A program made the translations under genes and the position numbers. This document shows positions 5,700 through 55,861 of a stretch of 64,000 nucleotides of DNA, one piece after another (the first letter of the stretch is position 1; the number at the start of each line of letters is the position of its first letter). The stretch comes from Escherichia coli (GTDB lineage: Bacteria; Pseudomonadota; Gammaproteobacteria; Enterobacterales; Enterobacteriaceae): NCBI RefSeq assembly GCF_003019035.1, contig NZ_CP027447.1. One strand, written 5' to 3'. Below the pieces are notes generated by a model. It did no database searches. It was not told the DNA's origin and saw only the letters and a list, made by a program, of their open reading frames with translations.

Positions 5700-7178
5700 T
5701 CACCCCGCCCGTAAAAGCATTTTCATTTTTTCGCTGCGACAAAACTGACGCTTCACTTCCACCACCAGCGGATGGCGCGACAACACAATCATCACCACAA
5801 ACGCCAGCACGCCTGCGGCTATTTGCACCGCCAGCAGCATCCCCAGCGCCAGTTGCCCTTTCAGCACAATGCCCAGCGCATAACTAACCACCAGCGTCGG
5901 CAGCGAGAGATAAAACGGCAGCCATAAACTCAGGATGTACTGGCGATAACTGGAACCGAGCACCGGTTTAATCATCACGAAATAGCTCAGAATGGTGTTG
6001 ATAATCTGCACCAGCAGGAAGCCGAGCGTGACGCCGATTGCGCCCGCCATCTGCCCACCAATAACAATCGCCGGAATAAACAGAAATGTTTTGAATACGT
6101 TGAATTTAAAGCTGATATCGACCCGCGCTTTCGCCATCAGCAGCGAACCAATCGGGTTCCCCACTGAGCGCAGCAGCCCCACCACACACAGCAATTGCAG
6201 CACCGGAATAATGCTGCTCCACTTCTCACCAAAGACCAGCGGTACAAAGTTATTCGACACCACCATCAGCCCCAGCAGCGCCGGAAAGTTGATAATCCCC
6301 ACCACCGACAGCAGCTTGTAGAAGTTGACGCGCAGCTTTTCGGTGTCGTCCTGAATTTTGGCAAACGCCGGAAACAACACGCGCGTGATGATTGGGTTCA
6401 GCTTCATCGGCGGCACAACGGCCACGTTGTACGCCAGGTTGTATCCCCCAGCTACGCCCGCGCCGAGAATACGCGCCAGCACCAGCGTTGAAAGGTTGGT
6501 ATTGAGATAGTTGATGATGCTGTCCGCCGTCAGCCAGGCACCAAAACGTAAGTTTGGTGCCACCGACGCCAGCGAGAAGTGCAGACCGGGGCGATAAATT
6601 TTGCGACCAAAGTAGCCAAACAGCAGCGTTCTTACCGCACTATTGACCAGATAACCGAGGATCGCGGTCATCGCCAGTGGCCAGAAATGGGCGCTAACCA
6701 CCGTAAAAGTGAAGCCCGCCAGCACCGCGCTGGTTTCGATCATGCCGATTTTGTTGAACTCCAGCTCTTTTTGCATCAACGCGCGGAACTGCTGCCCGTG
6801 GGGGATCACCACAAACGCCAGCGACAATGTTTTAATCAACGGTGCCAGGTCCGGATTATTCAGCATGTCGCCAATGGCATCACTCAACAAAAACACCGCC
6901 ACACACACCACAAGCCCCAGCCCAACGTTCAGCCAGTACAGCGTGGTGAGTTCAAGGTGGCTGATTTCTTTTCGCTGAATAATCGAGTTAGCGATACCGA
7001 AGTCAGAAAGCGTATCTGCCAGCGCGATGATCACCAGCGACACGGTAAGCAAACCGAACTGGTGGTTGTCGATAATCCGCGCCAGCACGGTCATCTGCAC
7101 CAGCCCGAGGCCGATGATGATCACCGTGGCAATCGCCGACCACTTCGCGCCGCTGATGGTTTTTTCACGTAAGCTCAT
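5700..7178 (-). CDS. wzxC: Colanic acid repeat-unit flippase WzxC (multi-pass membrane protein)
   Basis: 492-aa highly hydrophobic ORF; cluster position. Confidence 0.9.
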   Translation of the reverse strand: MSLREKTISGAKWSAIATVIIIGLGLVQMTVLARIIDNHQFGLLTVSLVIIALADTLSDFGIANSIIQRKEISHLELTTLYWLNVGLGLVVCVAVFLLSDAIGDMLNNPDLAPLIKTLSLAFVVIPHGQQFRALMQKELEFNKIGMIETSAVLAGFTFTVVSAHFWPLAMTAILGYLVNSAVRTLLFGYFGRKIYRPGLHFSLASVAPNLRFGAWLTADSIINYLNTNLSTLVLARILGAGVAGGYNLAYNVAVVPPMKLNPIITRVLFPAFAKIQDDTEKLRVNFYKLLSVVGIINFPALLGLMVVSNNFVPLVFGEKWSSIIPVLQLLCVVGLLRSVGNPIGSLLMAKARVDISFKFNVFKTFLFIPAIVIGGQMAGAIGVTLGFLLVQIINTILSYFVMIKPVLGSSYRQYILSLWLPFYLSLPTLVVSYALGIVLKGQLALGMLLAVQIAAGVLAFVVMIVLSRHPLVVEVKRQFCRSEKMKMLLRAG

Positions 7179-7179
7179 A

Positions 7180-8574
7180 TCAATATGCCGCTTTGTTAAC
7201 GAAGCCTTTGAATACCGTCAGGAAAACGATTTTGATATCGAACCAGACGCTCCATTCGCGGATGTACTCAAGGTCGAACTCGACGCGTTTTTCCATTTTC
7301 TCCAGCGTGTCGGTTTCGCCGCGCCAGCCGTTAATCTGCGCCCAGCCGGTAATGCCCGGTTTCACTTTATGGCGCAGCATGTAGCCTTCAATGAGCTGGC
7401 GATACTGTTCGTTATGCGCCACCGCATGCGGACGCGGACCGACAATCGACATCCCGCCAGTCAGCACATTGATAAACTGCGGCAATTCGTCCAGCGAGGT
7501 GCGGCGCAGAAAGTTCCCCACTTTGGTGACGCGCGGATCGTTCTGCGTCGCCTGAGTCACCACTTTGTCGTTCTCCATCACTTTCATCGAACGGAACTTC
7601 CACACTTTGATCGGCTTGCCATCCATGCCGTAGCGAGTCTGGCGAAAAATAACCGGCCCCGGTGAGCTCAGTTTCACCGCTAGCGCAATGCAGCACAGCA
7701 CCGGGGAGATCAGCAGCAGGATAAGCGTCGCCAGCACAATGTCTTCCGCACGTTTGAGCAGGCGGTTAACCCCGGAAAGCGGCGTGTCATACAGCGGCAC
7801 CACCGGTACGCCATTCATCTCTTCGAGGCGTGAATGGAGAATGTTGAAGGTAAAGACATCGGGGATCAGCAGCACCGAACAGGTGGTGTCCGCCAGTTGA
7901 TGGACCAGTTTTTTCACTCGCGCGCCGTCGCACATCTGCATCGCGATATAGACGTTATGAATCTTGCCCGCTTTCGCATCCTCGACCAGCTGTTGCAGAT
8001 TACCCGCCCAGTCGTTAGAAACGCCACCCGGTTTCGGGTCGTGGTAAACGCCCACCACTTCAAACCCTAACCACGGCTGATTACGGAAGCTCTCCATCAG
8101 CATTTGTCCGGCGGCTAAATCCCCCGCCACCGCGACCATGCGCTTGTTATAGCCATGATTACGCAGCCAGCCCGCCCCAATACGAATACATGAACGGCAA
8201 ACCACCAGTCCGATGCTGGTCAGCCCATACCACGCCAGCCAGATTTTCAGTTGCGTGTCGAAATCATTATTGAACGCCACCAGTCCGGCGCTGAAAATCA
8301 CGCTTAAGGTCCAGTTTTGTAGCAGCAGGGCAAATTCTGTCGCTGCCCGAACACCGCGCCATGAGCGATAAAAATCGGTGATGCCACCCAGCATCTGGAA
8401 CACCACCAGCGTAATCAGCGCCACCAACAGGTGCATGTAGAGGAATGACAGGCCGCTCACTTCGCAAACCAGCCATAGTCCGGCAAACATGATGGTGATA
8501 TCTGAAAAGCGTTGCACCATAGAGATTAACGATGCATTGGTTTTCGCTCGCTCGCGCTTTTTTAGATTTGTCAT
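7180..8574 (-). CDS. wcaJ: Undecaprenyl-phosphate glucose phosphotransferase WcaJ
   Basis: 464-aa ORF with N-terminal TM segments and C-terminal sugar-transferase domain (…PRPHAVAHNEQYRQLIEGYMLRHKVKPGITGWAQ…). Confidence 0.92.
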   Translation of the reverse strand: MTNLKKRERAKTNASLISMVQRFSDITIMFAGLWLVCEVSGLSFLYMHLLVALITLVVFQMLGGITDFYRSWRGVRAATEFALLLQNWTLSVIFSAGLVAFNNDFDTQLKIWLAWYGLTSIGLVVCRSCIRIGAGWLRNHGYNKRMVAVAGDLAAGQMLMESFRNQPWLGFEVVGVYHDPKPGGVSNDWAGNLQQLVEDAKAGKIHNVYIAMQMCDGARVKKLVHQLADTTCSVLLIPDVFTFNILHSRLEEMNGVPVVPLYDTPLSGVNRLLKRAEDIVLATLILLLISPVLCCIALAVKLSSPGPVIFRQTRYGMDGKPIKVWKFRSMKVMENDKVVTQATQNDPRVTKVGNFLRRTSLDELPQFINVLTGGMSIVGPRPHAVAHNEQYRQLIEGYMLRHKVKPGITGWAQINGWRGETDTLEKMEKRVEFDLEYIREWSVWFDIKIVFLTVFKGFVNKAAY

Positions 8575-9999: not shown

Positions 10000-10099
10000 G
10001 TCGTTACCCTTTTTCAGGCAATAGTTGGCCCTGACCGAAACGGCCAATTTTGTTTTTTCGTTATTTACCGGAGAATTAATCCGGTTGATTATTCAACGG

Positions 10100-24438: not shown

Positions 24439-24478
24439 CACGCTACCGCCCCTGGCTTTTTAGCTACCAATACACTGA
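24439..24478 (-). promoter_or_regulatory. JUMPStart/ops element in the wza (cps operon) leader
   Basis: Plus strand cacgctaccgcc at 24439-24450 is the reverse complement of ops GGCGGTAGCGTG; flanks nearly identical to the copy at 360-399. Confidence 0.75.
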
Positions 24479-24664
24479 TTTAGCTTAATTTTTAAAACCC
24501 TCTCAACATACAGTCGTTGATGAGAAAGGGTTATTGCGGAAATTAACTTCCGAATATAAGGTGACATTATGGTAATTGAATATTGGCTCTCCAATAATGC
24601 AGGAGGAAGTGTTACAGCTAACGGAATAGCAGGCAAGGTAACAATTCGGCAATTGGCTATTTTT

Positions 24665-24678
24665 AAGAATTATATTAA
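24665..24678 (-). promoter_or_regulatory. Candidate RcsAB-box-like sequence upstream of cps operon
   Basis: taagaattatatta resembles the TaAGaatatTCctA consensus recalled from memory; location far upstream of wza is plausible but unverified. Confidence 0.25.
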
Positions 24679-24918
24679 GTGTCATTCAATATGGTTTTTA
24701 GGAGTTTCTTTAGGTTGACAATATTTAATATAGTGTCTCCACATGCGATATTTCTTAAATAATGTTTTATTATTACCACTTTTAATTCAGGGATAATGTG
24801 AGGTTATAAACCTCAAATAATATGAGATAAATAGTGCTGCAACATTGCATTTTTGCCCCGATTTATCCATGATCGAATTGTGACATTTGTCATACAACGA
24901 ATAGGTTTTGTACTTACT

Positions 24919-26502
24919 ATGGAATGGATTGCCGATCCGTCTATCTGGGCCGGGTTAATCACGCTGATTGTGATCGAACTGGTCCTCGGCATTGATAACC
25001 TGGTCTTTATTGCCATCCTCGCCGAAAAACTACCGCCGAAGCAGCGCGACCGCGCACGGGTTACCGGGCTCCTGCTGGCGATGTTAATGCGCCTGTTACT
25101 GCTGGCGTCAATCTCCTGGCTGGTCACCCTGACTCAACCGCTGTTCAGCTTCCGCTCGTTTACCTTTAGCGCCCGCGACTTAATCATGCTGTTTGGTGGT
25201 TTCTTCCTGCTGTTCAAAGCCACGATGGAGCTGAACGAACGGCTGGAGGGGAAAGACAGCAATAACCCCACGCAACGCAAAGGTGCGAAGTTCTGGGGGG
25301 TGGTGACACAAATTGTGGTACTGGACGCCATCTTCTCACTCGACTCGGTGATTACCGCCGTCGGGATGGTCGACCATTTACTGGTCATGATGGCCGCCGT
25401 CGTTATCGCTATTAGCCTGATGTTGATGGCCAGCAAGCCCTTAACGCAATTTGTTAACAGTCACCCGACGATCGTTATTCTCTGCTTAAGCTTCCTGTTG
25501 ATGATTGGCTTTAGCCTGGTGGCAGAAGGTTTCGGCTTCGTCATACCGAAAGGCTACCTGTACGCTGCTATTGGTTTCTCGGTGATGATCGAGGCGCTCA
25601 ATCAGTTGGCTATCTTTAACCGGCGACGTTTTCTTTCCGCTAACCAGACACTGCGCCAGCGGACTACCGAAGCGGTAATGCGCCTGCTTAGCGGGCAAAA
25701 AGAAGATGCGGAACTGGACGCCGAAACCGCGTCCATGCTGGTGGATCATGGTAACCAGCAGATCTTTAATCCGCAGGAACGGCGGATGATTGAGCGGGTA
25801 CTTAATCTTAACCAGCGTACCGTCAGCAGCATTATGACGTCGCGCCACGATATTGAGCATATCGATCTCAACGCGCCGGAAGAAGAAATCCGCCAGTTGC
25901 TGGAGCGAAATCAGCATACGCGGCTGGTGGTTACCGACGGTGATGACGCAGAAGATTTGCTCGGTGTTGTTCACGTTATCGACCTGCTACAACAGTCTCT
26001 GCGCGGCGAACCGCTCAACCTGCGGGTGTTGATTCGCCAGCCGCTGGTGTTCCCGGAAACCTTGCCGTTGTTACCTGCCCTGGAGCAGTTCCGTAATGCC
26101 CGCACGCACTTTGCTTTTGTAGTGGATGAGTTTGGCTCGGTGGAAGGGATTGTGACATTAAGTGACGTCACTGAAACCATTGCCGGTAACTTGCCGAACG
26201 AAGTGGAAGAGATCGACGCCCGCCATGATATTCAGAAAAATGCGGACGGTTCCTGGACGGCGAATGGTCATATGCCGCTGGAAGATCTGGTGCAATATGT
26301 GCCGCTGCCGCTGGATGAAAAACGTGAATATCACACCATTGCCGGGCTATTGATGGAATATTTGCAGCGTATTCCAAAACCTGGCGAAGAAGTTCAGGTG
26401 GGGGATTATTTGCTTAAAACGTTGCAGGTGGAAAGCCATCGCGTGCAGAAGGTGCAAATTATTCCGCTACGTAAGGATGGCGAGATGGAGTACGAGGTGT
26501 GA
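24919..26502 (+). CDS. yegH: Inner-membrane protein YegH (TerC-like N-terminal domain, CBS pair and CorC/transporter-associated C-terminus)
   Basis: Start at [13 protein letters not shown]…; 527 aa; ORF-track 22-codon upstream extension rejected. Confidence 0.9.
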
Positions 26503-26576
26503 TAAAACATCAAATGCGCAGGTTCAAACTGCGCATTTGATTTATACAAAATTTAGTATAATCTAAGGATGGAGTA

Positions 26577-26915
26577 ATGAGAAAAAAGCTGGCTTTTCTT
26601 GATACCAGTCTTGACGATTTACGCGCATTTCCAGAATCGTCTCGACAGGAAATTGGCTATCAACTCGACAGGTTCCAACAAGGGTTAAACCCATACGACT
26701 GGAAACCTTTTTCAACTATCGGCCCTGGTGTGCGAGAGATTCGTACTCGCGATGCTGATGGGATCTATCGCGTCATGTATATCGCAAAATTTGAAGAAGC
26801 GGTTTACGTATTGCATTGTTTTCAAAAGAAAACACAGACTACCAGTCAATCGGATGTTGATTTAGCCAAACGACGCTATAAAGAACTTGTTCAGGAGCGG
26901 AAAAATGAAAATTGA
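26577..26915 (+). CDS. Type II toxin, RelE/ParE-fold, HigB-2/Gp49-like ('addiction module killer protein' family)
   Basis: 112-aa ORF with RBS aaggatgga; sequence pattern …IRTRDADGIYRVMYIAKFEEAVYVLHCFQKKTQ… typical of Gp49/HigB-like toxins; followed by an overlapping XRE antitoxin gene. Confidence 0.7.
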   Translation: MRKKLAFLDTSLDDLRAFPESSRQEIGYQLDRFQQGLNPYDWKPFSTIGPGVREIRTRDADGIYRVMYIAKFEEAVYVLHCFQKKTQTTSQSDVDLAKRRYKELVQERKNEN

Positions 26916-27195
26916 AACCTTTGATAGTGTGTGGGATGCGGTGAGTGACACCCCTGAACAAGCGGAAAATATGCGGATCCGTGCCGAACTTGTAACGATC
27001 ATTAATAACTGGATTGAACAACAAGGGTTTAGCCAGGCCCAGGCAGCGTCTGCTTTAGGGGTCACTCAACCTCGCATATCTGAACTTGCCAGAGGTAAGA
27101 TCCAGATCTTTAGTATCGATAAATTGATCACCATGATGGCTCATGCAGGATTGCATATTCAACGTATTGAAATTCAATATCCACATGCTGCTTAG
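26905..27195 (+). CDS. Type II antitoxin, XRE-family HTH ('addiction module antidote protein')
   Basis: 96-aa ORF MKIETFDSVWDAV… with HTH LGVTQPRISELARGK; RBS aggagcgg; overlaps toxin gene by 11 nt. Confidence 0.7.
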   Translation: MKIETFDSVWDAVSDTPEQAENMRIRAELVTIINNWIEQQGFSQAQAASALGVTQPRISELARGKIQIFSIDKLITMMAHAGLHIQRIEIQYPHAA

Positions 27196-27206
27196 TGCTA
27201 TAAATA

Positions 27207-27235
27207 CAGATGGCGACAAATTGACGCCGCCATCT
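27207..27235. terminator. 9-bp perfect inverted repeat between the TA operon and the convergent asmA; possible bidirectional terminator
   Basis: cagatggcg (12-nt loop) cgccatctg; no strong U-tract. Confidence 0.35.
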
Positions 27236-27247
27236 GCATAACTTGTC

Positions 27248-29101
27248 TTACATCTTCTCCAGCAACTTCTTCACATCTTTGCCATTGCGGGAATCTTTAT
27301 TCCGCTCGGCCCAGTCATTCAGGCGACGTTTCGCTTCGTCCTGTAGATGTTTGCGCAGTAACTGATCCACTTGCAGGCTGTAATTGAGTTGCTGCCAGTT
27401 GCCATAAACCCGCAGCGGTACTGGCGTTTCTTTGAGGAAATCAATCAGTTTGCTTTCTCCGTTCCAGCCACCAATCACACGAATGTCAAACTGGGTGTCG
27501 CAGGTTTGATCTGCCAGATTCAACATGCCTTCCCCTGTCAGCGCCAGCACTGGCGATTGACCTTGCATGTCGTTTAACGTCACGACGCCATCCTTCAACG
27601 TCAAATCGGTGGTAAAGCGGTCAAGACGCGTTACGTTATCGAAGTTTTCAGCGGCCTTCACATCACCACCATTACGTTCTACCGCTTGCTGAATCATCTG
27701 CTGGAAGTTCATCCCTTCCATGCGTGTGTCGGTCATTTCGACATGTGCCTGTCCTTGCCAGTTGTGGCGGAATGCGTCGGCATCTATGTCAGCACCGGAG
27801 AAATCACCAGCCAGTGACATCTTTCCAGTCAACGAAATCGGATAGTTAAACGCCTTCAGAATGGTGCCAATCTCAACGTTTTCCAGCCGTGGCTGGAAGT
27901 TTATCCGCGGATTTATTGATGTCGCGTCCAGCGTGCCCGGCAGCGAAACCTGTCCACCGTTAAGCTTGCCCTGCAGTTGAGTAATTTCCAGCAAACCCGA
28001 CTTGTTGGTCATTTGCGTGGAAACATCTGTAAAATTCATTCCGCGCCAGCGCACGTTACTGGCCTGCAACAAAATATCAGCCGTAAAGCCTTGCAATCCC
28101 TGATAGGCCGGTTCATCAATACGCGAAGAAATGACCGGGCGCGGCAACGTGGATTGGCTCTGCCCTTGCTGCGCGGCACCGTTTTCACCGTTCGCTGTTT
28201 CTTTAAGCGGGATGAGGTTGTCAAGATTCAGTTGCGGGAATTGCAGTCTCAGCTGCCATTCCGGTTTCTCTGTCAGCGTGACCTGTGCTTGCCCGCTCAG
28301 CGTACTGTCATTGGCGGTCAAACTAATTTGGTTAAATGAAAGGCGTTTATGTGACTCCTGCCACTGGGCCTGGAAACTCCCCTGCCCCTGAATACCTTGT
28401 TTTGGTAAATCTGCACCCTGCAACTGCCAGTTAATTTGTTCAATAGCCGCCGTTAAATCATGCGGATAATCAGAAGCATCTACCGTACCGTTAAGGGATA
28501 TCGTGAGGTCGCGCTGATCGCGATTAACCCGCCCGGAGAACTCAAATGAGCCACGATGTTGGGGATCTTGTTCCATTTGCAGGCGGATATTGCGGATTGT
28601 CACCTGCTCGTCATCTTCATGCTGGAACACCAGCACGCTGTCCGCCATCTTAAGACTGGATATATCAAACGACCATCCGCGATCGTCTGACAGATCCGGC
28701 AAGGTATTGTCGCGCGGTGCAACCGGAGCGTCTTCACTGCGCACCGCTTCCGTCTGCGGCGTCAGTTGGATCACTGCCCCTTTTAGCATCACCTGCTTAA
28801 CGCTCAGTTGATGACTCAGTAGTGGTAAAAGCGCCACGTCCAGACGCATGTTGTCGGCGCGAACCAGTGGCTGGCTCGCGCCCTGGGCGGTGAGAGACAT
28901 TCGCCCGGAGAGGATACTAAGCTGCGGCCAGACGTGCCAACGCAGTGGCCCGTCGAGCTGCAATTGATAACCGCTACGTGCAGCAACTTGCTTGACCATA
29001 TAGTCGCGGAAATCATTCGGATTCACCAGCAACACTAACGCAGATAACCCGGCCACCAGCACGACCAGGAGTATCATCAGCGTCGTCAGAAATCGTCTCA
29101 T
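27248..29101 (-). CDS. asmA: Outer-membrane assembly protein AsmA
   Basis: 617-aa ORF with N-terminal TM anchor MRRFLTTLMILLVVLVAGLSALVLLV. Confidence 0.95.
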   Translation of the reverse strand: MRRFLTTLMILLVVLVAGLSALVLLVNPNDFRDYMVKQVAARSGYQLQLDGPLRWHVWPQLSILSGRMSLTAQGASQPLVRADNMRLDVALLPLLSHQLSVKQVMLKGAVIQLTPQTEAVRSEDAPVAPRDNTLPDLSDDRGWSFDISSLKMADSVLVFQHEDDEQVTIRNIRLQMEQDPQHRGSFEFSGRVNRDQRDLTISLNGTVDASDYPHDLTAAIEQINWQLQGADLPKQGIQGQGSFQAQWQESHKRLSFNQISLTANDSTLSGQAQVTLTEKPEWQLRLQFPQLNLDNLIPLKETANGENGAAQQGQSQSTLPRPVISSRIDEPAYQGLQGFTADILLQASNVRWRGMNFTDVSTQMTNKSGLLEITQLQGKLNGGQVSLPGTLDATSINPRINFQPRLENVEIGTILKAFNYPISLTGKMSLAGDFSGADIDADAFRHNWQGQAHVEMTDTRMEGMNFQQMIQQAVERNGGDVKAAENFDNVTRLDRFTTDLTLKDGVVTLNDMQGQSPVLALTGEGMLNLADQTCDTQFDIRVIGGWNGESKLIDFLKETPVPLRVYGNWQQLNYSLQVDQLLRKHLQDEAKRRLNDWAERNKDSRNGKDVKKLLEKM

Positions 29102-40556: not shown

Positions 40557-40736
40557 AAGAAATCCTTTCTTAGAGAATTATTGAGGTCCGGTATCATACC
40601 GATTGCAATAATGAAATAAGAGCAAACGAAGAAACTTTCAGAATTAGGCCCGGCGGCGCAGAAAATTTTGCTATTCGCCTCGCAAGAACGGAGAGCCGTC
40701 GATTGACACTAAGGGCGGAGTGACATAATTTCAGGA

Positions 40737-40886
40737 GTGAGGGTTAGGGAGAGGTTTCCCCCTCCCCCTGGTGTTCTTAGTAAGCCTGGAAGCTAATCAC
40801 TAAGAGTATCACCAGTATGATGACGTGCTTCATCATAACCCTTTCCTTATTAAAAGCCCTCTTCTCCGGGAGAGGGTTTCCCGTTT
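40737..40886 (+). ncRNA. sibA: Sib antisense sRNA (type I antitoxin), copy 1; ends approximate
   Basis: -35 ttgaca (40703-40708), 17-bp spacer, -10 taattt (40726-40731); intrinsic terminator gccctcttctccgggagagggtttcccgtttc ending ~40886; fully antisense to ibs ORF. Confidence 0.6.
40777..40836 (-). CDS. ibsA: Type I toxin IbsA-like, 19 aa (MMKHVIILVILLVISFQAY)
   Basis: Reverse-complement translation; SD aaggaaag upstream; differs from remembered K-12 IbsA by one residue (P17Q). Confidence 0.8.
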   Translation of the reverse strand: MMKHVIILVILLVISFQAY

Positions 40887-41071
40887 CAGCGTCCCGCTGA
40901 AATCGTCGGCTTACCTCCTTTCGCCCTGAATGCAGTCTATCGCTAACGCGTGAACAAAATAGTTTCCTCTGTGATTATTCCGTAACGACTCGCAAAGAAT
41001 ATTTGCTGGCAGGATCGCAGACTACAAAGCCTGCGGATTGACAATCTTATCGTGAAGGCATAATTTCAGGA

Positions 41072-41214
41072 GTGAGGGTAGAGCGGGGTTTCCCCCGCCC
41101 TGGTAGTCTTAGTAAGCGGGGAAGCTTATGACTAAGAGCACCACGATGATGAGTATCTTCATCATGACCCTTTCCTTATTTATGGCCCCTTCCTCGGGAG
41201 GGGCTTTCCCGTTT
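41072..41214 (+). ncRNA. sibB: Sib antisense sRNA, copy 2; ends approximate
   Basis: -35 ttgaca 41038-41043, -10 taattt 41061-41066; terminator hairpin ggcccctcctcgggaggggc + ttcccgtttc (41184-41214). Confidence 0.6.
41109..41165 (-). CDS. ibsB: Type I toxin IbsB-like, 18 aa (MMKILIIVVLLVISFPAY)
   Basis: Reverse-complement translation with SD; hydrophobic Ibs-family peptide. Confidence 0.8.
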   Translation of the reverse strand: MMKILIIVVLLVISFPAY

Positions 41215-41399
41215 CAGCGTCCCGCTGAAATCGTCGGCTTACCTCCTTCTGTCCTGTATGCAGTCTATCGCTGACTTGCGGATAAAATAGTTTCCAATGT
41301 GATTATTGCGTAACGTCTCGCAAAGAATATTTGCTGGCAGGATCGCAGACTGCAAAGCCTGCAGATTGACAATATTATCGTGAAGGCATACTTTCAGGA

Positions 41400-41543
41400 G
41401 TGAGGGTAGAGCGGGGTTTCCCCCGCCCTGGTAGTCTTAGTAAGCCGGGAAGCTTATGACTAAGAGCACCACGATGATGATCCACTTCATCATGACCCTT
41501 TCCTTATTTAAGGCCCCTTCCTCGGGAGGGGCTTTCCCGTTTC
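41400..41543 (+). ncRNA. Sib antisense sRNA, copy 3; ends approximate
   Basis: -35 ttgaca 41366-41371, -10 tacttt 41389-41394; terminator hairpin 41512-41543. Confidence 0.55.
41437..41493 (-). CDS. Type I toxin Ibs-family, third copy, 18 aa (MMKWIIIVVLLVISFPAY)
   Basis: Reverse-complement translation; same frame/SD as copy 2 but with Trp at position 4. Confidence 0.7.
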   Translation of the reverse strand: MMKWIIIVVLLVISFPAY

Positions 41544-55533: not shown

Positions 55534-55861
55534 TTCATTTCGATTATTTTTCCCGGATGGAAAATTCTTAGAAACCGATCACATACAGCTGCATTTATTA
55601 AGGTTATCATCCGTTTCGCTGAAAAACATAACCCATAAAATGCTAGCTGTACCAGGAACCACCTCCTTAGCCTGTGTAATCTCCCTTACACGGGCTTATT
55701 TTTTATACATAAGCCGTATCCTGGTAACCGTCTTCCATTGACCACATCGATAGAATCTCCCCTCATAGCACGATGCCTTTCACTTATTGGCATCGTGCTC
55801 GCACAGGTTCCGGTTACGCACAGCCAGAACGCGCATGTTTGACGCTTACCAAAAAATATTC

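Follow-up and report, generated by a model that had tools for sequence, protein, structure and literature searches.

A probable Gp49/HTH_37-type toxin-antitoxin module in an accessory yegH-asmA islet of Escherichia coli

Introduction

Toxin-antitoxin modules of the Tad-Ata family, in which a Gp49-type toxin is combined with a helix-turn-helix (HTH) antitoxin, have been described since 2007-2009, and the original description of Tad-Ata is reportedly that of Dziewit in 2007. Representatives are found on plasmid pAMI2 of Paracoccus aminophilus, in the gp49-gp48 pair of phage N15 and in SXT; their toxins are those of the COG4679/DUF891/Gp49 class, with HTH proteins as antitoxins. Pairs of Gp49 and HTH_37 proteins are recognized toxin-antitoxin modules (PMC7157771, PMC2701414, PMC11980606), antitoxins of the class COG5606 pair with COG4679 toxins (PMC2701414), and in all Gp49-domain modules studied so far the toxin gene comes first (PMC5906591). 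The same two Pfam families occur, again toxin-first, in modules of Tn3-family transposons (Tn4662a, TnPosp1 and others), where they adjoin a resolvase gene and res sites (PMC7157771).

Several related systems have been studied experimentally. The plasmid-encoded HigBA2 system of Acinetobacter baumannii is a toxin-first operon of a Gp49-domain protein and an HTH antitoxin. Its two proteins were shown to form a complex, with RNase activity of the system, repression of the operon by its own antitoxin and a co-repressor role of the toxin also demonstrated; the HigB2 toxin degraded naked RNA in vitro (PMC5906591). HigB1 of Mycobacterium tuberculosis (Rv1955), the ribosome-dependent mRNase of the three-gene TAC system, is listed under PF05973 (PMC11980606); its toxicity is abolished by the K95A substitution and inhibited by R68A and R77A, and K58, N73 and K99 are likewise required (PMC9098466). 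In the HigB-2/HigA-2 pair of Vibrio cholerae, a toxin of RelE-type fold is encoded ahead of an HTH antitoxin. A classification from 2025 assigns the name HigB2, with reference to the V. cholerae work, to RelE (PF06296), and gp49, Tad, HigB1 and HigB3 to PF05973 (PMC11980606).

Here we describe a two-gene module of this kind between yegH and asmA in a window of 64,000 nucleotides (the whole stretch of DNA analyzed, from E. coli contig NZ_CP027447.1). Literature searches with its gene names, protein accessions, Sakai locus tags or guessed EDL933 locus tags returned no report on the module and no experiment.

Results

An Accessory Islet Makes Up the Entire yegH-asmA Spacer

In the window, yegH ends at position 26502 and the convergent asmA gene ends at 27248 on the - strand, leaving a gap of about 745 bp between them:

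26504-27247, no strand: accessory islet that occupies the whole intergenic spacer of yegH and asmA, 744 bp, 42.3% GC

The GC content of the islet (0.423) contrasts with that of the flanking genes (0.53 and 0.52). When aligned with K-12 and ST131, the window diverges directly past the yegH stop codon and the match resumes at the asmA stop; the boundaries of the islet are the stop codons of both flanking genes. The occupant of this site in K-12 and ST131 is an unrelated, REP-containing spacer of 273 or 451 bp, and the annotation of K-12 MG1655 holds zero genes in the interval, as the initial annotation had stated. Local similarity of the islet to the K-12 and ST131 spacers was not significant; the idea that these spacers are decayed remnants of the islet was rejected with a local alignment score of 21 versus a shuffled mean of 19-20. 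Searches for direct or inverted repeats that pair the islet ends found none, and no insertion scars were seen. Since neither terminal repeats nor a target-site duplication are present at the ends, insertion of a transposon, IS or integrative element was rejected, and a recombinase gene is likewise missing. The islet is a replacement of the whole spacer and not a simple insertion. Of its initial description as an inserted islet, the accessory nature of the DNA, absent from K-12, holds true, whereas the notion of an insertion does not fit a spacer that differs in its entirety and has no flanking repeats.

The neighbors of the islet are housekeeping genes, and a defence island is absent. No Rfam family reached its gathering score in the islet. 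The RefSeq annotation of strain SCU-301, which is nearly identical, contains both coding sequences that we discuss below. A 9-nt repeat (GATGGAGTA) is probably due to chance; its two copies, at 26484 and 26568, are both at the left of the islet.

The Two Genes and Their Products

The islet carries two overlapping open reading frames, each of which is preceded by a ribosome-binding site of its own:

26565-26569, + strand: Shine-Dalgarno sequence of the toxin gene, AAGGA, 7 nt 5' of the ATG (read from the sequence)
26577-26915, + strand: toxin gene, Gp49/Tad family (PF05973) with a RelE-type fold, 112 aa (Pfam, PHROG, AlphaFold2, Foldseek)
26893-26897, + strand: Shine-Dalgarno sequence of the antitoxin gene, AGGAG, within the toxin 3' end, 7 nt 5' of the ATG (likewise read)
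26905-27195, + strand: antitoxin gene, HTH_37 (PF13744) XRE-type DNA-binding protein, 96 aa (Pfam, PDB, AlphaFold2)

The best start of the antitoxin gene is the ATG at 26905, which gives an overlap of 11 nt with the toxin gene upstream. This toxin-then-antitoxin arrangement, the two ribosome-binding sites and the HTH string LGVTQPRISELARGK in the antitoxin had all been noted in the initial annotation and were confirmed.

The toxin matches Gp49 (PF05973) with E=3.6e-29, its residues 13-102 covering model positions 1-90 of 90, and a Pfam scan down to E=10 returned only one further match, which is spurious. The protein also matches phrog_2523 (E=9.8e-36) and gp49 of phage N15 (32% identity, E=2e-16), and RefSeq names it a type II RelE/ParE family toxin. 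Its AlphaFold2 model (pLDDT 94.4, pTM 0.86) retrieved with Foldseek first the HigB toxin of Streptococcus pneumoniae (6af3/6af4; rank 1) and M. tuberculosis HigB1 in its free and ribosome-bound forms (7awk, 7nbu), besides V. cholerae HigB2 and RelE proteins, with a probability of 1.0 and TM values of 0.5-0.69 for the best set. The full-length profile, the RelE-type fold and the toxin-first order place the protein in the Gp49/Tad family (PF05973; COG4679). The designation as HigB-2-like that it had been given at first is imprecise: PF06296 is absent from the Pfam scan down to E=10, the fold search places the V. cholerae HigB2 structures (5jaa, 8a0x) no higher than 11th-12th, and membership in the V. 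cholerae HigB-2 family is not supported.

Among toxins of solved structure, S. pneumoniae HigB is the best match in both sequence (E=0.019 with a single sequence, 3.6e-5 with a profile) and structure, and S. pneumoniae HigA is among the fold matches of the antitoxin; however, toxin identity is only about 20%, and the antitoxin match is weak (E=0.24). HigB1 aligns with TM values of 0.67-0.69 to the toxin, at about 20-22% identity. In a profile alignment, E54, R56, R65, F82, K84 and Q87 of the toxin correspond to HigB1 E66, R68, R77, F93, K95 and Q98, with the HigB1 chain numbering inferred from the title of the K95A entry and the remark of the paper on six invisible first residues. In the same alignment, HigB1 K58, N73 and K99 are not kept and correspond to S46, D61 and T88. 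R65 is invariant among 69 toxin homologues, and E54, Y68, H80, F82 and K84 are nearly so. The position equivalent to K99 is T or A in 65 and K or R in 76 of 161 family sequences, and T or A is also found there in plasmid-borne homologues from maintenance regions.

The antitoxin matches HTH_37 (PF13744; E=4.9e-22) and the PDB entry 2a6c (E=3e-14, 41% identity). Its AlphaFold2 model (pLDDT 84.7, with a low-confidence N-terminus) has 2a6c and 2o38 as its best fold matches, followed by HipB and HigA antitoxins. The protein has both the HTH_37/COG5606 (Ata/HigA-type) profile and an XRE-type helix-turn-helix fold. It carries an N-terminal motif, FDSVWDA, that is found in 83 of 102 antitoxin homologues, and a C-terminal Ala-Ala, in which 66 of the 102 end, compared with 1.7% expected from composition. 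Such a C-terminal Ala-Ala resembles ClpX C-terminal recognition signals.

The homology searches thus put both proteins into toxin-antitoxin families, as had been proposed for a RelE-fold Gp49 toxin with an XRE antitoxin. Their scores stay below the cut-offs of the curated NCBIfam toxin-antitoxin equivalogs (TIGR02683 upstrm_HI1419, 23.6 bits versus 62.85; TIGR02607 HigA, 16.3 versus 47.7; TIGR03070 Y4mF, 20.4 versus 71.65), and PADLOC-DB gave weak partial matches only (NsnC, E=0.0024; PDC-M64C, E=6.9e-5, for the antitoxin). Membership in a curated NCBIfam equivalog or in a PADLOC defence system was rejected with all scores below threshold.

A Candidate Operator Upstream and Hairpins on Either Side of the Genes

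Three further features lie in the parts of the islet that flank the two genes:

26509-26541, + strand: yegH 3' hairpin, 7 nt past the yegH stop codon, with 16-nt arms that are 94% complementary
26543-26562, + strand: candidate operator and -10 box, with TATAC at 26543-26547, 8 nt, and GTATA at 26556-26560
27204-27239, no strand: convergent-gene hairpin between the antitoxin gene and asmA, with 12-nt arms at 27204-27215 and 27228-27239

The first hairpin folds as RNA with -22.2 kcal/mol (z = -8.1); on the + strand it is followed by a weak U-tract (TTTAT), and only on the - strand did the consensus scan give it a score. It probably is the yegH terminator, situated on islet-specific DNA.

The right half of the palindrome (TTATACAAAA/TTTAGTATAA) overlaps a perfect TATAAT box at 26557-26562. 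In six homologous loci (from E. coli, two Salmonella, Erwinia, Pantoea and Serratia) the TATAC and GTA positions upstream of the genes are invariant in flanks that are otherwise unalignable, whereas Erwinia and Serratia deviate at the two final bases of the right half-site. The TATAC-N8-GTATA repeat is the likely operator of the module. The -35 region of the toxin operon is poor (TTGATT at 26537-26542, at a short spacing of 14 nt). Since a consensus sigma-70 promoter scan of the + strand called no promoter for the operon, we base the promoter assignment on the TATAAT box and its conservation.

Downstream of the genes, the perfect 9-bp inverted repeat that had been reported initially was recovered within the 12-nt arms (CAGATGGCG at 27207-27215 and CGCCATCTG at 27228-27236). 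The structure folds with -15.5 kcal/mol (z = -3.8) on the + strand and with -24.8 kcal/mol (z = -6.7) on the - strand; its U-tracts are weak, and the terminator scan did not call it. It is likely to act as a bidirectional terminator of the antitoxin gene and asmA, stronger on the asmA strand.

Relatives of the Module

The nearest relatives outside the yegH-asmA site share about 70-79% identity and are located in plasmid maintenance or leading regions, where they adjoin IncFII repA, parG, parB, psiA or tra genes. Phage-borne relatives exist on phages and prophages, none of them closer than 56% identity. Every homologous locus that we inspected has the toxin gene followed by the HTH gene.

With Tad-Ata, the window module shares the PF05973 toxin family and the toxin-first order; however, it is chromosomal, between housekeeping genes, and its antitoxin has no detectable BLASTP similarity to N15 gp48 and for this reason belongs to another HTH subfamily (HTH_37). 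Unlike the modules of Tn3-family transposons, it stands without transposon genes or terminal repeats. In contrast to TAC, with its third gene for a SecB-like chaperone, the 744-bp spacer fits two genes only, with yegH and asmA as neighbors, and the antitoxins of the two systems are unrelated in detail. By description, the module is like the A. baumannii HigBA2 system in its Gp49 domain, toxin-first operon and HTH antitoxin.

Distribution and Decay in E. coli

Of 5,426 complete E. coli genomes, about 910 (about 17%) have the islet or traces of it between yegH and asmA. Carriers include O157:H7 (Sakai ECs_2869/ECs_2870) and O55:H7 lineages, strain KO11FL and also Shigella dysenteriae. The genes are therefore neither conserved in this interval throughout E. 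coli, being absent from K-12, nor strain-specific, as had been assumed at first.

Full-length genes were found for the antitoxin in 908 and for the toxin in 790 of the 909 E. coli genomes with any trace, an asymmetry that is one of genome counts and not of independent events. About 60 further records are in the band that corresponds to a 23-nt deletion allele; of those that we inspected, one is annotated as frameshifted, and two more have an equally shortened span. The main deletion extends in from the toxin side. Strain ChlosBP-23-1 is a natural example of a deleted toxin gene. Other broken toxin alleles comprise an IS1 insertion and a truncated toxin of 82 aa, and about 20% of the carrier genomes have a visibly broken toxin gene. 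Decayed alleles are thus usually without the toxin and have kept the antitoxin. In metagenomic data, a few truncated antitoxin sequences were seen.

Between the window and Sakai, the antitoxin genes have six synonymous and one non-synonymous codon differences. The toxin genes have three non-synonymous and zero synonymous ones, which, in this tiny sample, gives no sign of purifying selection. Plasmid-borne E. coli copies were considered and rejected: in the "plasmid" record H33 the islet adjoins asmA and dcd, and near-identical E. coli plasmid matches consequently look like mislabelled chromosomal pieces.

Discussion

We consider it highly probable that the two genes form an intact type II toxin-antitoxin module, composed of a Gp49/Tad toxin (PF05973, COG4679) and an HTH_37 antitoxin (PF13744, COG5606). 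To judge from the family and the layout of the locus, it would operate in the following way. Both genes would be transcribed from a single promoter whose -10 box lies within the TATAC-N8-GTATA palindrome. The antitoxin, a dimeric XRE-type helix-turn-helix protein, would bind the palindrome and repress the operon, probably with the toxin as a co-repressor, after the example of A. baumannii HigBA2. The conserved N-terminal segment of the antitoxin is expected to bind and neutralize the toxin, and its C-terminal Ala-Ala may mark it as a protease substrate, a lability that would require continual resynthesis. Free toxin would be an endoribonuclease of the RelE fold. In all likelihood it would, as does HigB1, enter the A site of the ribosome and cleave mRNA there, with arrest of translation and growth as the consequence. 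Since A. baumannii HigB2 cuts naked RNA, ribosome dependence is uncertain for the window toxin. The module probably arrived once at the yegH-asmA site, from a plasmid-type maintenance module, and would since have been inherited, exchanged by homologous recombination via the flanking genes, and lost, usually beginning with the toxin.

A Gp49-family protein need not be toxic: M. tuberculosis HigB2 and HigB3 are members of this family and were non-toxic (PMC9098466, PMC5906591). The window pair might accordingly be attenuated or domesticated, its toxin no longer arresting growth. The pair would then persist either neutrally, as a passenger, or in the role of a small autoregulated transcription factor that has a partner protein. 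The replacement of three residues required for HigB1 toxicity (by S46, D61 and T88) is consistent with such attenuation, as are the dispensability of the toxin, judged from its broken genes, and its exclusively non-synonymous differences from Sakai. However, the main catalytic positions R56, R65 and K84, along with E54 and Q87, are preserved and vary little across the family, the plasmid-borne homologues of maintenance regions likewise have T or A where HigB1 has K99, and an active toxin accounts better than a neutral pair for the sparing of the antitoxin in 908 of 909 genomes. We regard attenuation as unlikely.

Phage defence by abortive infection would leave the mechanism unchanged and concern its selected role: infection would deplete the labile antitoxin, and the RNase would then stop translation. 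Modules of the RelE/ParE superfamily are discussed as defence toxins (PMC11980606), the module has relatives on phages and prophages, and the antitoxin weakly matches the PADLOC candidate PDC-M64C. Yet neither protein convincingly matches any PADLOC model, the surroundings are housekeeping genes and not a defence island, and the closest relatives reside in plasmid maintenance regions; we judge a defence role to be quite unlikely.

A broader reading, which we hold to be improbable, sees in the yegH-asmA interval a polymorphic site exchanged by recombination, with two unrelated occupants, either the toxin-antitoxin module or a spacer with REP and a TwoAYGGAY-like RNA, and with hybrid alleles recording the displacement of one by the other. 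The module might then be active in addiction or abortive infection, and in large recombination events it might travel along with the neighboring colanic-acid and O-antigen region or bias how that region is inherited.

A ParE-like gyrase poison shares the RelE/ParE superfamily with the toxin, and the RefSeq product name fits either activity, but it is a most improbable identity for this protein, given that a ParE structure ranks 16th (TM 0.39, versus 0.6-0.69 for HigB and RelE RNases), Pfam gives Gp49 and not ParE (PF05016), residues of the RNase pocket are kept in part (E54, R56, R65, F82, K84 and Q87), and the family is listed as mRNA-degrading (PMC11980606).

The module is real but ordinary: it belongs to a known family and is already annotated publicly. 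RefSeq labels the toxin in hundreds of E. coli genomes, and Sakai ECs_2869 is named "toxin RelE". Its importance beyond good annotation is little. The downstream gene can be given the name of cognate antitoxin in place of "helix-turn-helix protein" or "transcriptional regulator", and the HTH_37 antitoxin subfamily gains TATAC-N8-GTATA as an operator candidate and the C-terminal Ala-Ala as a possible degron. The locus also offers a natural series of decay alleles, in which mostly the toxin is lost first, that lends itself to the question of whether a toxin-antitoxin module on the chromosome of pathogenic E. coli is still active.

As a minor observation on the comparison with SCU-301, the window differs from this strain at 82 positions in 50 kb, and mdtC, which is frameshifted according to the SCU-301 annotation, is an intact open reading frame of 1,025 aa in the window.

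A two-gene islet replaces the spacer between yegH and asmA

The window is a piece of the E. coli chromosome in which the colanic-acid cluster and wza are followed by yegH, two small genes, asmA, dcd, udk, dgcE and, further on, mdtABCD. The initial annotation described the two small genes as overlapping frames, each with its own ribosome-binding site and followed by a perfect 9-bp inverted repeat, and this observation is confirmed in full: the frames overlap by 11 nt, and the repeat lies at 27207-27215 and 27228-27236 within 12-nt arms. Both coding sequences are likewise annotated in RefSeq for the E. coli strain SCU-301, in which the two-gene stretch matches at 100%.

Features of the yegH-asmA interval
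26502: end of yegH
26504-27247: islet, 744 bp, 42.3% GC against 52-53% in the flanking genes
26509-26541: hairpin carried by the islet, 7 nt 3' of the yegH stop, -22.2 kcal/mol
26543-26560: palindrome TATAC-N8-GTATA, just 5' of the toxin gene
26557-26562: perfect TATAAT, overlapped by the palindrome
26565-26569: toxin Shine-Dalgarno sequence AAGGA, 7 nt 5' of the ATG
26577-26915, + strand: toxin gene, 112 aa
26893-26897: antitoxin Shine-Dalgarno sequence AGGAG, 7 nt 5' of the ATG
26905 (ATG) to 27195, + strand: antitoxin gene, 96 aa
27204-27239: hairpin between the antitoxin gene and asmA, stronger on the asmA strand
27248, - strand: end of asmA, convergent with yegH

The module had been viewed as an insertion absent from K-12. 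K-12 indeed carries an unrelated spacer here; the islet is, however, a replaced spacer and not a simple insertion, as the 273-bp K-12 and 451-bp ST131 spacers are both unrelated to it. Neither terminal repeats nor a recombinase gene were found at the islet. The last codons of yegH, TAAGGATGGCGAGATGGAGTA (26472-26492), resemble the ribosome-binding region of the toxin gene, TAAGGATGGAGTAATG (26564-26579), and share with it the perfect 9-nt repeat GATGGAGTA; the two copies sit to one side of the islet, and the resemblance is probably due to chance.

The K-12 spacer (L001:1004-1276) and the ST131-type spacer (L002:1004-1454) possess a REP-like element at their right end that scores about 32-33 bits, below threshold, against the naRNA4 model. 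The longer ST131 form also resembles the TwoAYGGAY RNA motif below threshold (31.5 bits; gathering score 43), and by eye it appears to contain two hairpins with ATGGAC/ATGGAT loops.

The proteins belong to the Gp49 and HTH_37 families

By profile, fold and gene order, the first protein belongs to the Gp49/Tad toxins. It covers the whole Pfam Gp49 model (PF05973; E=3.6e-29), matches phrog_2523 (E=9.8e-36) and is 32% identical to gp49 of phage N15, the namesake of the family. Its AlphaFold2 model, computed with 69 homologues as input, has a pLDDT of 94.4. Among solved structures it most resembles S. pneumoniae HigB, M. tuberculosis HigB1 (both alone and on the ribosome with cspA mRNA), V. cholerae HigB2 and a number of RelE proteins; ParE ranked far lower. 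The Gp49-like toxin with a RelE/ParE fold proposed initially is borne out, but the "HigB-2" label has to be dropped: the toxin lies outside PF06296, the family that bears the name HigB2.

In the profile-to-PDB alignment, toxin residues E54, R56, R65, F82, K84, and Q87 correspond to E66, R68, R77, F93, K95, and Q98 of HigB1, whose toxicity is lost in the K95A variant and inhibited by R68A and R77A (PMC9098466). R65 is invariant in the family alignment, and E54, Y68, H80, F82, and K84 are nearly so. Three other residues required for HigB1 toxicity, K58, N73, and K99, correspond to S46, D61, and T88 of the toxin; T or A is common across the family at the K99-equivalent position.

The second protein is, by the same three measures, a member of the HTH_37/COG5606 antitoxin family. 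It matches HTH_37 (PF13744; E=4.9e-22), shares 41% identity with 2a6c, a structural-genomics protein, and is modeled as an XRE-type helical domain, in agreement with the helix-turn-helix assigned to it before. A nearly invariant FDSVWDA...AEN motif lies within its first ~20 residues and is modeled with low confidence, as expected for a region whose folding depends on contact with its partner. The protein terminates in HAA (window 27187-27195). Among the homologues compared (P0270-P0389), an Ala-Ala C-terminus is present in 66 of 102 full-length proteins, compared to 1.7% expected from composition, and is preceded by variable residues; from these sequences, it may be a ClpXP-type C-terminal degron in the HTH_37 subfamily.

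The initial interpretation was right in substance: this is a real toxin-antitoxin family pair. The pair is nonetheless ordinary: it is already catalogued, its toxin-antitoxin family is known, and the accessory spacer on which it sits is common. Both proteins remained under the cut-offs of the NCBIfam equivalogs, the cut-offs of the PADLOC systems were not reached, and, since there is no chaperone gene, the locus falls outside the TAC criteria. Unlike the toxin, the antitoxin has no sequence-level relationship to its N15 counterpart, gp48, which illustrates the known partner swapping of the Gp49 toxin family (PMC2701414). What we add is small: a candidate operator, the C-terminal Ala-Ala, the finding that the spacer has been replaced, and a series of decay alleles in which the toxin goes first.

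A conventional autorepressed module is the best-supported model

The TATAC and GTA positions of the palindrome are invariant upstream of homologues on Salmonella, Erwinia, Pantoea, and Serratia plasmids, whose upstream DNA is otherwise unalignable; in Erwinia and Serratia the right half-site departs from the window sequence at its final two bases. This conservation makes TATAC-N8-GTATA the best candidate for the antitoxin operator. Since the -35 region is poor and a consensus scan called no + strand promoter, the TATAAT promoter is a putative one.

The evidence best supports an autorepressed type II module of the conventional kind, and we are largely confident that the locus is a genuine module of the Gp49/HTH_37 family. 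A single operon would be transcribed from the TATAAT promoter, and an HTH_37 dimer would bind the palindrome with the toxin as co-repressor, by analogy with the Gp49-type HigBA2 of A. baumannii, for which such repression has been shown (PMC5906591). The antitoxin N-terminal segment would neutralize the toxin, and the antitoxin would be turned over, perhaps via the C-terminal Ala-Ala. Free toxin would cut mRNA and, like HigB1, most likely act at the ribosome (PMC9098466); the gp49 family is listed under ribosome-dependent mRNA degradation, with toxin-first order (PMC11980606). Against this, A. baumannii HigB2 cut naked RNA (PMC5906591).

Activity of the toxin in this strain is a somewhat better than even prospect. 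Also against the model, M. tuberculosis HigB2 and HigB3, of the same family, are non-toxic (PMC9098466), and our literature search found no publications on this locus. The antitoxin gene is full-length in 908 of the 909 genomes with any trace and the toxin gene in only 790. Such toxin-first decay would be predicted if the toxin is, or was until recently, active. However, the count is of genomes and not of independent events, the main deletion comes in from the toxin side, and a few truncated antitoxins do occur in metagenomic data.

In the 5'-deleted class (L010:511-1070), an ST131-type spacer is joined at about codon 57 of the toxin gene, so that terminator, promoter, and toxin 5' half are gone and an identical antitoxin is kept. 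A 23-nt deletion allele has about 60 more records within its identity band; the frameshift is annotated in the sole record inspected, and two others have the same shortened span. An 82-aa truncated toxin is widespread, and one genome carries IS1 within the toxin gene. In strain WB61 (L011:950-1304) the islet is reduced to its final 104 bp, fused to the spacer, and the yegH 3' end is missing as well. A record labelled E. fergusonii (L015:2953-3842) has an antitoxin-only form lengthened to 113 aa. From these three hybrid alleles (L010, L011, and L015), it follows that two unrelated spacers displace each other at this site. The protein P0324 (91 aa), a natural in-frame fusion of the toxin N-terminal ~38 residues to the antitoxin HTH domain, is a further deletion-type decay product of the module.

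Distribution and origin of the islet

Among 5,426 complete E. coli genomes, 910 have the islet in whole or in part and 792 have 80% or more of it; it is essentially always chromosomal, single-copy, and located between yegH and asmA. Among the carriers are O157:H7 (Sakai ECs_2869, "toxin RelE", and ECs_2870, "transcriptional regulator"), O55:H7, and strain KO11FL, and Shigella dysenteriae has it at the same site. The single inspected record of an E. coli "plasmid" copy proved to be a chromosomal piece. The family overall is very large. The nearest relatives outside Escherichia (~70-79% identity for both proteins) are found in plasmid maintenance or leading regions, adjoining IncFII repA, parG, parB, psiA, or tra genes; those on phages are more remote, at 56% identity or less. 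In the simplest history, the islet was acquired once, from a plasmid-type module, and has since been inherited vertically, exchanged by homologous recombination via the flanking genes, and lost.

Salmonella plasmid or conjugative contigs with the closest homologue carry a second, different Gp49 + HTH pair within ~3 kb:
L004:4001-4625 and 5913-6504
L008:4001-4623 and 7190-7841

Other RNA elements in the window

The yegL-mdtA interval holds three SIB RNA genes in tandem (40703-40851, 41038-41180, and 41366-41508; Rfam, 141-150 bits), and the corresponding stretch of SCU-301 has three annotated Ibs type I toxin genes opposite them. K-12 has two copies at this locus, sibA/ibsA and sibB/ibsB, so that the window strain seems to possess one more. 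Ordinary known RNA elements are located at 360-398, 24439-24477, 10004-10053, and 55616-55701 (two JUMPstart elements, an algC RNA motif, and CyaR); one JUMPstart is 5' of wza and adjoins a 49-aa open reading frame (24569-24718) annotated as hypothetical in RefSeq.
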